From: Escherichia coli | GTDB lineage: Bacteria; Pseudomonadota; Gammaproteobacteria; Enterobacterales; Enterobacteriaceae | Length of the DNA: 64,000 bases | Direction: 5' to 3' (one strand) | Assembly: GCF_002854065.1 (NCBI RefSeq) | Contig: NZ_CP024147.1 | Shown: positions 4,250 through 17,485 of the stretch, piece after piece | Layout: every line of letters begins with the position of its first letter | How positions within the stretch are numbered: the stretch's first letter is position 1 | Position numbers and translations under genes: made by a program | The notes under the pieces: generated by a model | What the model was told of the DNA's origin: nothing | The model's database searches: none | Seen by the model: only the letters and a program-made list of their open reading frames with translations

Positions 4250-5104
4250 ATGGATGCCCTTAGCCGTTTGTTGATGCTTAACGCTCCACAAGGAACGATC
4301 GATAAGAATTGCGTGTTAGGAAGTGACTGGCAGCTTCCACATGGTGCCGGGGAATTATCGGTTATTCGTTGGCATGCGTTAACGCAAGGAGCGGCGAAGC
4401 TGGAAATGCCGACGGGAGAGATTTTTACATTACGCCCGGGAAATGTGGTCCTGCTACCACAAAATTCAGCTCATCGCCTGAGTCATGTCGATAATGAATC
4501 GACCTGTATTGTCTGTGGTACTCTTCGGCTGCAACATTCGGCACGTTATTTTTTAACGTCTTTGCCGGAAACGCTGTTTTTAGCACCGGTTAACCACAGC
4601 GTGGAATATAACTGGCTGAGGGAGGCGATCCCGTTTTTACAACAGGAATCCAGATCGGCAATGCCGGGAGTGGATGCACTGTGTAGCCAGATCTGCGCTA
4701 CATTCTTTACCCTCGCGGTGCGTGAGTGGATTGCACAGGTTAATACTGAGAAAAACATTCTCAGTTTGCTTCTGCATCCACGTCTTGGTGCGGTAATACA
4801 GCAAATGCTGGAAATGCCAGGACACGCCTGGACCGTCGAATCGCTGGCCAGCATCGCCCACATGTCCCGGGCAAGTTTTGCCCAGCTTTTCCGTGATGTT
4901 TCCGGAACCACGCCGCTGGCTGTATTAACAAAGTTGCGTCTACAAATAGCGGCCCAGATGTTTTCCCGGGAAATGCTCCCTGTTGTGGTGATCGCTGAGT
5001 CAGTAGGCTATGCCAGTGAATCATCTTTTCACAAGGCGTTTGTCCGCGAGTTTGGTTGTACTCCGGGAGAATATCGGGAAAGGGTCAGACAGCTTGCACC
5101 CTGA
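4250..5104 (+). CDS. rclR: RclR, AraC-family redox-sensing activator of rclABC
   Basis: 284-aa ORF with C-terminal AraC HTH (…SRASFAQLFRDVSGTTP…); divergent from rclA. Confidence 0.9.
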   Translation: MDALSRLLMLNAPQGTIDKNCVLGSDWQLPHGAGELSVIRWHALTQGAAKLEMPTGEIFTLRPGNVVLLPQNSAHRLSHVDNESTCIVCGTLRLQHSARYFLTSLPETLFLAPVNHSVEYNWLREAIPFLQQESRSAMPGVDALCSQICATFFTLAVREWIAQVNTEKNILSLLLHPRLGAVIQQMLEMPGHAWTVESLASIAHMSRASFAQLFRDVSGTTPLAVLTKLRLQIAAQMFSREMLPVVVIAESVGYASESSFHKAFVREFGCTPGEYRERVRQLAP

Positions 5105-13487: not shown

Positions 13488-15521
13488 ATGATAGACCTTT
13501 CACACAGCAGGGAAAAGGACAAAATCAATCCGGTGGTGTTTTACACCTCCGCCGGACTGATTTTGTTGTTTTCCCTGACAACGATCCTGTTTCGCGACTT
13601 CTCGGCCCTGTGGATTGGCCGCACGCTGGACTGGGTTTCTAAAACCTTCGGTTGGTACTATCTGCTGGCGGCAACGCTCTATATTGTCTTTGTGGTCTGT
13701 ATCGCTTGTTCGCGTTTTGGTTCGGTGAAGCTCGGGCCAGAACAATCCAAACCGGAATTCAGCCTGCTGAGTTGGGCGGCAATGCTGTTTGCTGCCGGGA
13801 TCGGTATCGATCTGATGTTCTTTTCCGTAGCCGAACCGGTAACGCAGTATATGCAGCCGCCAGAAGGCGCGGGACAGACGATTGAGGCCGCGCGTCAGGC
13901 GATGGTCTGGACGCTGTTTCACTACGGCTTAACCGGCTGGTCGATGTATGCGCTGATGGGCATGGCGCTCGGATACTTTAGCTATCGTTATAATTTGCCG
14001 CTCACCATCCGCTCGGCACTGTACCCGATCTTCGGTAAACGGATTAACGGGCCGATAGGTCACTCAGTGGATATCGCGGCGGTGATCGGCACTATCTTCG
14101 GTATTGCCACTACGCTCGGTATCGGTGTGGTGCAGCTTAACTATGGCTTGAGCGTACTGTTTGATATTCCCGATTCGATGGCGGCAAAAGCGGCACTGAT
14201 CGCCTTGTCGGTGATAATCGCCACTATCTCGGTGACATCCGGTGTCGATAAGGGCATTCGCGTGTTATCGGAGCTTAATGTCGCGCTGGCGTTGGGATTG
14301 ATCCTGTTCGTGTTGTTTATGGGCGACACTTCGTTCCTGCTTAATGCACTGGTGCTGAATGTTGGCGACTATGTGAATCGCTTTATGGGCATGACGCTCA
14401 ACAGTTTTGCCTTCGACCGTCCAGTTGAGTGGATGAATAACTGGACGCTCTTCTTCTGGGCATGGTGGGTGGCATGGTCGCCGTTTGTCGGCTTGTTCCT
14501 GGCGCGTATCTCGCGTGGGCGTACCATTCGCCAGTTCGTGCTGGGCACGTTGATTATTCCGTTTACCTTCACGCTGTTATGGCTCTCGGTGTTCGGCAAT
14601 AGCGCGCTGTATGAAATCATCCACGGCGGCGCGGCATTTGCCGAGGAAGCGATGGTCCATCCGGAGCGCGGCTTCTACAGCCTGCTGGCGCAGTATCCGG
14701 CGTTTACCTTTAGCGCCTCCGTCGCCACCATTACTGGCCTGCTGTTTTATGTGACCTCGGCGGACTCCGGGGCGCTGGTGCTGGGGAATTTCACCTCGCA
14801 GCTTAAAGATATCAACAGCGACGCCCCCGGCTGGCTGCGCGTCTTCTGGTCGGTGGCGATTGGCCTGCTGACGCTCGGCATGCTGATGACCAACGGGATA
14901 TCCGCGCTGCAAAACACCACGGTGATTATGGGGCTGCCGTTCAGCTTTGTGATCTTCTTCGTGATGGCGGGGTTGTATAAATCTCTGAAGGTAGAAGATT
15001 ACCGCCGTGAAAGTGCCAACCGCGATACCGCACCGCGACCGCTGGGGCTTCAGGATCGCCTGAGCTGGAAAAAACGTCTCTCGCGCCTGATGAATTATCC
15101 GGGCACGCGTTACACTAAACAGATGATGGAGACGGTCTGTTACCCGGCAATGGAAGAAGTGGCGCAGGAGTTGCGGTTGCGCGGCGCGTACGTGGAGCTA
15201 AAAAGCCTGCCGCCGGAAGAGGGACAACAGTTGGGGCATCTGGATTTGTTGGTGCATATGGGCGAAGAGCAAAACTTTGTCTATCAGATTTGGCCGCAGC
15301 AATATTCGGTGCCGGGCTTTACCTACCGCGCACGTAGCGGTAAATCGACTTACTACCGGCTGGAAACTTTCCTGTTAGAAGGCAGCCAGGGCAACGACCT
15401 GATGGACTACAGCAAAGAGCAGGTGATCACCGATATTCTTGACCAGTACGAGCGGCACCTTAACTTTATTCATCTCCATCGTGAAGCGCCGGGCCATAGC
15501 GTGATGTTCCCGGACGCGTGA
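13488..15521 (+). CDS. betT: choline transporter BetT (BCCT family)
   Basis: 677-aa multi-TM ORF with long cytoplasmic C-terminal tail. Confidence 0.95.
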   Translation: MIDLSHSREKDKINPVVFYTSAGLILLFSLTTILFRDFSALWIGRTLDWVSKTFGWYYLLAATLYIVFVVCIACSRFGSVKLGPEQSKPEFSLLSWAAMLFAAGIGIDLMFFSVAEPVTQYMQPPEGAGQTIEAARQAMVWTLFHYGLTGWSMYALMGMALGYFSYRYNLPLTIRSALYPIFGKRINGPIGHSVDIAAVIGTIFGIATTLGIGVVQLNYGLSVLFDIPDSMAAKAALIALSVIIATISVTSGVDKGIRVLSELNVALALGLILFVLFMGDTSFLLNALVLNVGDYVNRFMGMTLNSFAFDRPVEWMNNWTLFFWAWWVAWSPFVGLFLARISRGRTIRQFVLGTLIIPFTFTLLWLSVFGNSALYEIIHGGAAFAEEAMVHPERGFYSLLAQYPAFTFSASVATITGLLFYVTSADSGALVLGNFTSQLKDINSDAPGWLRVFWSVAIGLLTLGMLMTNGISALQNTTVIMGLPFSFVIFFVMAGLYKSLKVEDYRRESANRDTAPRPLGLQDRLSWKKRLSRLMNYPGTRYTKQMMETVCYPAMEEVAQELRLRGAYVELKSLPPEEGQQLGHLDLLVHMGEEQNFVYQIWPQQYSVPGFTYRARSGKSTYYRLETFLLEGSQGNDLMDYSKEQVITDILDQYERHLNFIHLHREAPGHSVMFPDA

Positions 15522-15534
15522 TTGTTATTGCATA

Positions 15535-15571
15535 AAACCGCGCCATGTCTGCATATGGCGCGGTTTCTCTT
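15535..15571 (+). terminator. betT rho-independent terminator candidate (stem aaaccgcgccat / atggcgcggttt followed by T-rich run)
   Basis: Read directly from sequence, 14 nt after betT stop. Confidence 0.6.
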
Positions 15572-16396
15572 ACCTCTTGATACGTTATATCTGTACGGTT
15601 AAGCCCTTAGTATCGATTGATGATTGCCAGGCAACAGATAATAAAAAAGAAAAGAACTATTGAAGCCCAAAACCTACATTTGGACTGTTGTGAATGTTCA
15701 ATAAGCTTAGTCTTATTTAATGTAAATATTGGTGCTAATTTGAAATGACGCTTTATTCATGGGGAACGCGTAGCGCAAATCAACTAAAATCAATGTAACC
15801 GTTTGTTGTTTAAGGTTTAATTGTCTGTGTCTGATATTTTATTGATTGTTTTAAATATTGTTTTTATTGTCATTGTTATAATGTTGGCTATCTATTGCTG
15901 AATGGATTCAGTCTTAAAAGGCAGGTTGTTAAGGGATAGGCATAGAGTAATGACGTGTATGCATAACCAACATCTTTACTCATTATGTCATTGAATGTTG
16001 ACGCTATGTGTTTATGAGGTTGAGGTATTTTCAGTTGATCTGGATTGTTAAATTCATATAATGCGCCTTTACTCATGAGTGGGCATCAATACGTAGTGGG
16101 AAATTATAAATATCGAAATAGTCCAACTACTTCTTTATTACCAAAAATGAGTATCTGAATTTTAATATTGCATTCTTGCGTGATTATCTCCTGAGTTTGA
16201 CTTGTGATTACCTTTTTAAGGTATTTAGCGTAACTGTTTTTGAGCGAGCATCAGAGGTAAAGATAATCTTCTTGATAGTGATGTGGGATGTTATACGAAT
16301 GGCATCGCTAATGTTTATGGTTACCCCTTATGTGTGCTCAGGAATCCACAGGTAATCACTCATACTGAACAGCGATAAAAGATAAAAGGTGTGTTC

Positions 16397-17485
16397 ATGA
16401 ATTCATGTGATTTTCGTGTTTTTCTGCAAGAGTTCGGTACAACGGTTCATTTGTCATTGCCTGGTAGCGTATCCGAGAAAGAACGACTGCTACTCAAGCT
16501 GCTGATGCAGGGAATGTCTGTAACAGAAATATCACAGTACAGAAATCGCAGTGCAAAGACAATTTCACATCAAAAGAAACAGCTCTTTGAGAAACTGGGG
16601 ATTCAGAGCGATATTACTTTCTGGCGCGATATTTTCTTTCAGTACAATCCGGAGATCATATCCGCCACGGGTAGTAATAGTCATAGATATATTAATGATA
16701 ATCACTATCACCATATCGTCACGCCTGAAGCCATCAGTCTGGCGTTGGAAAACCATGAATTCAAACCGTGGATCCAACCGGTTTTCTGCGCGCAGACTGG
16801 GGTACTGACGGGCTGTGAAGTGCTTGTCCGCTGGGAACATCCACAAACGGGAATCATCCCGCCGGATCAGTTTATTCCTCTGGCGGAGTCATCCGGTCTT
16901 ATTGTCATAATGACCCGCCAACTGATGAAACAGACTGCGGATATTCTAATGCCGGTAAAACATTTGCTGCCGGATAATTTCCATATTGGTATCAACGTCT
17001 CGGCGGGTTGTTTTTTGGCCGCGGGATTTGAAAAAGAATGCCTGAACCTGGTCAAGAAATTAGGAAACGATAAAATCAAACTGGTTCTCGAGCTAACGGA
17101 ACGTAACCCTATTCCGGTAACGCCAGAAGCCAGAGCGATATTTGACAGCCTTCATCAGCACAACATTACCTTTGCGCTGGATGACTTTGGTACGGGTTAT
17201 GCGACCTATCGTTATCTGCAGGCGTTTCCGGTCGATTTTATTAAGATCGATAAGTCATTTGTGCAAATGGCGAGTGTCGACGAAATATCCGGTCATATTG
17301 TGGACAATATTGTCGAACTGGCTCGTAAGCCTGGTCTGAGTATCGTGGCGGAAGGGGTAGAAACCCAGGAGCAGGCGGATTTAATGATCGGTAAAGGCGT
17401 TCACTTTTTGCAGGGCTATTTGTACTCTCCGCCAGTACCGGGTAATAAATTTATCTCTGAATGGGTAATGAAAGCAGGTGGTTGA
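16397..17485 (+). CDS. pdeL: c-di-GMP phosphodiesterase PdeL (LuxR-type HTH + EAL domain)
   Basis: ORF track 16391..17485; start at MNSCDF (362 aa); LuxR HTH near N-terminus, EAL-domain motifs (ELTE, DDFGTGY). Confidence 0.9.
   Translation: MNSCDFRVFLQEFGTTVHLSLPGSVSEKERLLLKLLMQGMSVTEISQYRNRSAKTISHQKKQLFEKLGIQSDITFWRDIFFQYNPEIISATGSNSHRYINDNHYHHIVTPEAISLALENHEFKPWIQPVFCAQTGVLTGCEVLVRWEHPQTGIIPPDQFIPLAESSGLIVIMTRQLMKQTADILMPVKHLLPDNFHIGINVSAGCFLAAGFEKECLNLVKKLGNDKIKLVLELTERNPIPVTPEARAIFDSLHQHNITFALDDFGTGYATYRYLQAFPVDFIKIDKSFVQMASVDEISGHIVDNIVELARKPGLSIVAEGVETQEQADLMIGKGVHFLQGYLYSPPVPGNKFISEWVMKAGG

Follow-up and report, generated by a model that had tools for sequence, protein, structure and literature searches.

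The 875-bp gap upstream of pdeL in Escherichia coli: very probably the regulatory region and leader of pdeL, at a locus with two diverged haplotypes

Background

The pdeL (yahA) promoter of Escherichia coli reportedly carries a Cra site, described by Shimada et al. in 2005, and work of the Schnetz laboratory is said to have dealt with the repression of this gene by H-NS; Reinders et al. reportedly characterised the promoter region in 2015 as well. In K-12, ChIP-chip found FIS, H-NS and IHF bound at the pdeL regulatory region, where RNA polymerase was retained. Transcription of K-12 pdeL requires Cra, PdeL and the boxes of both proteins, and is strongly derepressed when H-NS is missing (Reinders et al., bioRxiv 10.1101/2021.10.01.462762). 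According to the same work, H-NS and PdeL compete at a distal, Cra-independent PdeL box (CIB), and when c-di-GMP is low, tetramers of PdeL are proposed to link CIB with a Cra-dependent PdeL box (CDB) and to counter silencing in this way.

We have analysed the corresponding region in a stretch of 64,000 nucleotides of E. coli DNA (NCBI RefSeq assembly GCF_002854065.1, contig NZ_CP024147.1), hereafter "the window". The K-12 promoter belongs to this very locus: its elements are the same, they follow one another in unchanged order, and its leader is about 98% identical. The K-12 allele nevertheless differs from ours by a stretch (15722-15950) that is about 10% diverged, and its allele class, judged by bands of whole-gap identity, is a minority of the genomes that lack ehaA at this site.

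Results

Location, length and composition of the gap

The gap lies at 15522-16396 (875 bp), between two genes carried by the same strand:

13488-15521, + strand: betT, 677 aa
ATG at 16397, + strand: pdeL (formerly yahA), 362 aa, c-di-GMP phosphodiesterase gene

The initial annotation had placed an 875-bp gap upstream of pdeL, and its limits are exact, with the betT stop at 15521 and the pdeL ATG at 16397. It had also described this gap as unusually long and as strongly AT-rich with oligo-A/T tracts. The length stands: in E. coli XJ34, whose counterpart is 100% identical and which we used for the ranking (outside the gap XJ34 is not base-for-base collinear with the window), it ranks second in length among the 49 intergenic gaps of the RefSeq annotation, for which the median is 102 bp. 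The AT-richness stands too, the gap having 34.9% GC (31% in its distal part) against 51.4% for the whole window, and this low GC content extends over several hundred bp, as expected of H-NS-silenced DNA. However, the remaining gaps of the window have 31-43% GC, so that 35% is inside the usual range, and the tracts are at chance level, with 16 runs of at least four A or T against 13.6 +/- 3.2 in shuffles. What is unusual in this gap is its length, not its composition.

The sole longer gap in the XJ34 annotation is codB–prpE. The window contains seven tandem copies of naRNA4 (Rfam RF02564; REP325-type) at 44582-45221 on the + strand, in units of 76-78 nt each with a period of about 94 nt, and these seven copies probably fill the codB–prpE gap. 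They are the only Rfam elements found in the whole window at gathering thresholds, and they lie outside the gap studied here.

Distal elements and operator

The upstream half of the gap contains the following elements:

15534..15571, + strand: betT intrinsic terminator hairpin (AAACCGCGCCAT / ATGGCGCGGTTT), a perfect 12-nt inverted repeat, then a T-rich tail
15697..15719, unstranded: CIB, the distal Cra-independent PdeL box, TTCAATAAGCTTAGTCTTATTTA, palindrome AATAAG-N6-CTTATT
15827..15901, + strand: yahV small ORF, MSDILLIVLNIVFIVIVIMLAIYC, GTG start, 24 codons, hydrophobic, positional equivalent of K-12 b4730
15897..15926, unstranded: Cra box GCTGAATGGATTCAGT (15897-15912) and the adjoining Cra-dependent PdeL box CDB, matching the K-12 CB+CDB EMSA oligo 4695
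15970..16004, unstranded: conserved block ACATCTTTACTCATTATGTCATTGAATGTTGACGC, between the Cra box and the -35

The betT terminator has a predicted RNA fold of -22.5 kcal/mol (z = -6.0). CIB could be placed because the supplement of Reinders et al. (bioRxiv 10.1101/2021.10.01.462762) gives, with its legend, the limits of an EMSA fragment (primers 4991 and 4997, 66 bp) that reaches 10 bp upstream and 33 bp downstream of the box. Its centre is about 360 bp upstream of the start site; 22 of its 23 bases are identical to K-12, its half-sites are kept in all four lineages without ehaA, and its pattern is unique within the 64 kb (0.01 expected). The Cra box, centred at about -163 relative to the start site, is identical to that of K-12 at 16 of 16 positions and is invariant in every lineage and in both haplotypes, wherever the stretch is available. 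Only 8 of the 13 bases of CDB, on the other hand, are those of K-12. The block at 15970..16004 is nearly invariant over the four lineages without ehaA. The IHF and Fis sites of Reinders et al. are upstream of the promoter, between CIB and CDB, an interval that differs from that of the block.

Two side observations concern this region. The 10-mer CTTTACTCAT occurs both in the conserved block (15974-15983) and at the transcription start (16067-16076); we rejected this repetition as a signal, since by our estimate it is about what chance would give in AT-rich DNA of such length. An information-theory scan had predicted a cluster of Fur sites 510 bp upstream of the pdeL start, at position 331085 of K-12 U00096.2 (about 15887 in the window), and a second cluster, inside the pdeL gene, was confirmed by gel shift (PMC2189734). 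The predicted upstream cluster overlaps the 3' end of yahV and the Cra box.

Promoter and transcription starts

Start sites were taken from the + strand entries of the Cappable-seq table of K-12 MG1655 (PMC4782308, Additional file 1) and mapped from U00096.2 onto the window:

16026..16067, + strand: core sigma-70 promoter, -35 TTGATC (16035-16040), 16-bp spacer, -10 TATAAT (16057-16062)
16068, + strand: main start, U00096.2 331267, score 8.9
16154, + strand: weaker start, U00096.2 331353, score 4.8
16304, + strand: weaker start, U00096.2 331503, score 3.6

The core promoter agrees with the consensus at 10 of 12 positions, its two hexamers are identical to those of K-12, and it is kept in both haplotypes and in 4-5 Escherichia lineages. 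The RNA polymerase recruitment fragment of Reinders et al., which runs from the Cra box to primer 4283 (reverse complement CATATAATGCGCCTTTGCTC), covers this same promoter. The main K-12 start is 6 nt after TATAAT and 328 nt upstream of the pdeL ATG at 331595, a position for the ATG that agrees with the -510 offset given for 331085 (PMC2189734). Using the conserved -10 hexamer, we had predicted this start at 331268 before seeing the start data, one base off the position found. The K-12 table lists no + strand start between the betT stop and 331267. For the allele of the window we infer a start at 16068 from promoter hexamers identical to those of K-12, in which it was mapped. The suggestion of the initial annotation that the gap could hold a leader is thus borne out, with a 5' UTR of 329 nt, and the start-site map does not reduce to a single proximal promoter: the main promoter is distal, and two weaker starts lie inside the leader.

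The sole GATC (Dam site) of the gap is inside the -35 TTGATC (16035-16040). This hexamer is TTGATT in other Escherichia lineages and in the ehaA-type haplotype. When dam is mutated in K-12, pdeL ranks among the five genes with the strongest down-regulation, at a log2FC of -3.08 (PMC11741368); a direct effect of methylation on the pdeL promoter is possible.

The leader

The transcript from the main start would begin with the following features:

16068..16396, + strand: pdeL 5' UTR, 329 nt, from the main transcription start to the pdeL ATG
16070..16153, + strand: candidate stem-loop at the 5' end of the leader, 32-nt arms, 72% complementarity, -18.5 kcal/mol, z = -2.4
16265..16385, + strand: conserved 3' part of the leader, identity 0.876 vs 0.747 at pdeL four-fold sites in the deepest pair, p = 4e-4
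16299-16355, + strand: 18-codon ORF MASLMFMVTPYVCSGIHR, stop position shared by four lineages
16386..16399, + strand: Shine-Dalgarno and pdeL start codon (AAGGTGTGTTCATG), AAGG at 16386, the exact point where homology with the ehaA-type haplotype resumes (nhmmer)

Of the 3779 matching E. coli records, 3774 have the leader at 95% identity or more, and it is present as a single copy; within E. coli, no paralogous copies were found outside the pdeL locus, apart from candidate matches at nine plasmid places. As a whole, it folds no better than shuffled sequences (z = -0.6). Just two parts fold better than their shuffles by minimum free energy, namely the betT terminator (z = -6) and, to a weak degree, the 5' stem-loop (z = -2.4). 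The pairs of this stem-loop are retained in a four-sequence alignment with one compensatory change only, and we regard it as a weak candidate.

A cis-regulatory RNA, including a c-di-GMP riboswitch, was considered and rejected, there being neither a covariance-model match nor a better-than-shuffle fold with covariation. An Rfam scan of 15300-16700 at E <= 10 returned three sub-threshold matches, which we attribute to chance, and no riboswitch family.

Conservation within Escherichia

Full-length LuxR-EAL orthologues of pdeL were searched for outside Escherichia and none was found, the Citrobacter matches covering the EAL domain only (47-48% identity). Since full-length pdeL was found only in Escherichia, a conservation plot across Enterobacteriaceae is impossible, and we have instead compared lineages within the genus, taking the four-fold degenerate sites of pdeL as a neutral benchmark. 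The gap without ehaA is also present in Escherichia sp. E1V33 (about 91% identity) and in the lineage of 'E. coli' SCPM-O-B-8794 (about 83%), with betT not adjacent in either. In deep pairs, apart from the Cra box and the half-sites of the PdeL box, only the core promoter (16026-16078; p = 0.001-0.015) and the 3' leader (16265-16385) exceed the benchmark, and pdeL four-fold sites change more slowly than either the distal region or the 5' leader. This pattern fits a gap constrained, over most of its 875 bp, in composition rather than in sequence.

Among E. coli records, 1642 have a whole-gap identity of 90-95% because the differences cluster at 15722-15950. The two allele classes of the gap have recombined in strain NCTC9082. 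An IS1 element has entered the leader of strain Ec-U4-19 (L006 3231-3998), 148-156 bp ahead of the pdeL start codon, where 9 bp of the target (window 16241-16249) are duplicated. Another is found in strain E66 (L005 ~4250-5000), in the stretch that separates the Cra box from the -35 (window 15961), and this strain has lost the bet operon. By its position, either insertion would uncouple pdeL from its native control.

A second haplotype with ehaA at the same slot

At least 80% of the ehaA-less gap is present in 3650 of 5426 complete E. coli genomes. The spacer of a different arrangement is found in 1399-1402 of the 5426 (about 26%), including O157:H7, in which the slot between betT and pdeL is occupied by a 573-bp spacer, ehaA (3984 bp) and a further 141 bp before pdeL. 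In O157:H7, ehaA is the autotransporter/adhesin gene of O-island 15 (PMC8565820). E. whittamii has an intact ehaA type; in E. albertii, ehaA has decayed to about 700 bp of fragments, with its last 114 codons kept. In E. whittamii (L010 3260-3326), the last ~25 nt of betT and its terminator stand upstream of the ehaA spacer, and tblastn detected no betT in the 8 kb upstream; this betT end looks like the remnant of a lost bet operon.

The segment over which the two haplotypes are diverged starts about 40 bp downstream of the betT stop and ends near codon 110 of pdeL. Ahead of the ribosome-binding site of pdeL, they have in common only the betT terminator, which is the sole shared stretch of at least 30 bases, the Cra box (17/17) and the core promoter TATTTTnAGTTGATnTG ... 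ATnCATATAATGCG, and Cra box and promoter block are 133 bp or 131 bp apart, depending on the haplotype. Within the first ~330 nt of pdeL, four-fold identity between haplotypes is 0.55-0.59, whichever species are compared. The rest of the window's pdeL is 98% identical to that of O157; in 99-nt windows against O157, the first ~330 nt (window 16397-16730; L004 10699-11030) are 72-93% identical and the rest 99-100%. Between E. albertii and O157, four-fold identity is 0.81 in this first segment and 0.50 in the rest of the gene, which suggests, from the sequences compared, that the 5' segment of pdeL has been exchanged between species.

The ehaA-type spacer contains its own PdeL-box-like palindrome, AATAAG-N6-CTTAT, between the Cra box and the -35 (L004 6207-6223; EDL933 379307-379323 = AATAAGACGATTCTTAT), conserved in E. 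whittamii and with one mismatch in E. albertii. We also set the EDL933 starts of Table S5 of PMC10469882 against the genome sequence. For ehaA, that table gives a start at 379500 (9 nt downstream of the conserved TATAAT) in exponential salt, stationary M9 and stationary salt cultures, and minor starts at 379540 and 379718; for pdeL it gives a start at 383685 in all eight conditions, 174 nt before the pdeL ATG (PMC10469882). The last codons of ehaA contain a perfect TATAAT, and the pdeL start follows it at a distance of 7 nt (383673-383685 region; L053 4573-4585). The 174-nt leader that follows contains an 11-12-bp hairpin 3' of the ehaA stop (L004 10579-10611; EDL933 383739-383771), and the 3' end of ehaA that is kept in E. 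albertii covers this pdeL promoter, whose -10 there is TATAAC. From these positions it follows that in ehaA-type strains the promoter next to the Cra box serves ehaA, and that pdeL uses another promoter.

Discussion

We think that the gap very probably comprises the full cis-regulatory region of pdeL together with its leader, in the version that E. coli strains without ehaA carry. The interpretation of the initial annotation is in essence right, and was already known from the K-12 literature; its proposal of an extended region silenced by nucleoid proteins, in particular, agrees with the published binding of H-NS, Fis and IHF in K-12 and with derepression in the absence of hns. Because the regulatory elements are conserved, the K-12 mechanism can be extended to the allele of the window as follows. 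Transcription of betT would end at its strong hairpin terminator, beyond which comes the 31% GC stretch with CIB and yahV. H-NS, together with Fis and IHF, would coat the AT-rich DNA and keep the promoter silent; Cra on its box would permit PdeL to bind alongside. At low c-di-GMP, PdeL tetramers would then bridge both boxes, displace H-NS and recruit RNA polymerase, and the expected outcome is positive autoregulation with a switch-like output. The near-consensus sigma-70 promoter would fire at about 16068, producing a 329-nt, AT-rich untranslated leader up to the pdeL ribosome-binding site. All functional data come from K-12, and as the upstream half is about 10% diverged from it and no more than 8 of the 13 positions of CDB agree, binding affinities and the behaviour of the switch may not be the same in the window.

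The length of the gap has other conceivable explanations, among them that it is mainly an evolutionary scar: an ancestral ehaA between the promoter and pdeL would have been lost or replaced, the ehaA promoter fused to pdeL, and the leader would be a functionless left-over or foreign DNA. We find this rather unlikely, but it has points in its favour, since the ehaA arrangement is present in 1399-1402 of 5426 E. coli genomes and in E. whittamii, and in decayed form (fragments of ~700 bp) in E. albertii, the Cra box and core promoter stand upstream of ehaA at nearly the same spacing (133 vs 131 bp), and the EDL933 start 9 nt after that TATAAT is assigned to ehaA. However, traces of ehaA were sought in the leader by four methods (blastn at word size 7, tblastx, Smith-Waterman scored against shuffled sequences, and nhmmer using a profile built from the ehaA–pdeL spacers of four species), which matched only the Shine-Dalgarno and the coding start. 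Neither ehaA itself nor its 5' UTR or 3' spacer has detectable similarity to the leader, and the lack of residual similarity from promoter to Shine-Dalgarno speaks against a remnant of ehaA or OI-15. Contrary to what one would expect of junk, moreover, the 3' leader is above the neutral benchmark and at least 95% identical across E. coli. Finally, both types occur in several Escherichia lineages, E1V33 and SCPM-O-B-8794 being without ehaA, and either direction of change is conceivable. The same 3' leader could instead be read as an element of post-transcriptional control, that is, a target of an sRNA or of an RNA-binding protein, or else a uORF of 18 codons whose translation sets that of pdeL. 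In favour of such a role, the deepest pair shows this part to be more conserved than the four-fold sites of pdeL (p = 4e-4), it lies downstream of the starts at 16068 and 16154, and the stop position of the ORF is retained in four lineages. We nonetheless judge this role unlikely: 16265-16385 folds at the level of its shuffles (z = +0.2), a compensatory change is seen in just 1 of the 77 predicted pairs (RNAalifold, four lineages), and the best Rfam match in 15300-16700 is far from threshold (19 bits vs a gathering score of 38.9). As for the 18-codon ORF (16299-16355), no purifying selection was detected on it, its substitutions being mostly nonsynonymous; its ATG is ACG in E1V33, and it has no clear ribosome-binding site upstream. 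The conservation of the 3' leader would be accounted for equally well by a constraint at the DNA level, for instance from a downstream element for H-NS or from the weak promoter at 16304.

That the gap owes its length to an additional gene, either an independent sRNA gene or yahV as a functional small-protein gene, seems highly improbable to us. The initial annotation had allowed for a small RNA, for which we found no support: we rejected an independent sRNA gene given the lack of a near-threshold Rfam match, of a promoter and terminator pair (the only terminator being that of betT) and of any 3' end listed in the Term-seq tables that we consulted. It had also seen no convincing ORF. This part needs a partial correction, in that yahV, which is annotated in K-12, is intact in the window at the K-12 position with its 24 codons, and roles in the osmotic stress response and in motility have been proposed for it from a co-occurrence analysis (PMC9976479). 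It is, at the same time, poorly conserved and behaves little like a gene under purifying selection. YahV of the window shares 17 of 24 residues with K-12 and differs at 7, all 8 nucleotide differences being nonsynonymous; neither Escherichia sp. E1V33 nor SCPM-O-B-8794 keeps the frame intact, and the ORF is absent from the ehaA-type haplotype. It is without annotation in XJ34, and a collection of 15 billion proteins contains the K-12 form of the peptide and lacks the exact form of the window. Within the gap, the K-12 Cappable-seq data list no + strand start upstream of yahV, which sits in the PdeL/Cra operator region. As yahV is flanked by the two PdeL boxes, a function at the DNA level may have shaped its sequence.

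Conclusions

As it was first described, the finding contains little that is new, the region being a known H-NS-silenced, Cra/PdeL-activated promoter with a long leader. What we believe to be new here is the recognition of two deeply diverged haplotypes at the betT–pdeL slot, of a promoter common to pdeL and ehaA, and of another promoter for pdeL where ehaA is present, a modest but testable addition. A broader reading, which we hold to be about as probable as its contrary on these sequence comparisons and mapped starts, is that the K-12 "pdeL promoter" is one state of an old two-state locus. In strains of the ehaA type, the same Cra box, a PdeL-box palindrome and the core promoter would drive ehaA, so that Cra, PdeL and c-di-GMP would control an adhesin and PdeL autoregulation would be weak or absent, and the boundary near codon 110 of pdeL would keep the N-terminal region of PdeL linked to the operator layout. 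Among the papers searched, none on E. coli tied ehaA to Cra, pdeL or yahA. Conclusions drawn from the PdeL switch of K-12 may not hold for the ~26% of E. coli genomes that have ehaA at this site. The comparison predicts that EhaA is under the control of Cra, PdeL and H-NS; if true, central-carbon flux and c-di-GMP would be linked to adhesion in EHEC.

Among described loci, O-island 15 has a related layout, with the difference that its palindrome is centred at about -122, whereas that of the ehaA-less type is 360 bp upstream. The gap also resembles other H-NS-silenced promoters (bgl, proU, csgD and similar), which likewise have AT-rich DNA on both sides of the start, are silenced by H-NS and are relieved by a specific DNA-binding activator. 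Unlike these, pdeL has its own gene product as anti-silencer, a c-di-GMP-sensing enzyme that needs Cra as a partner.
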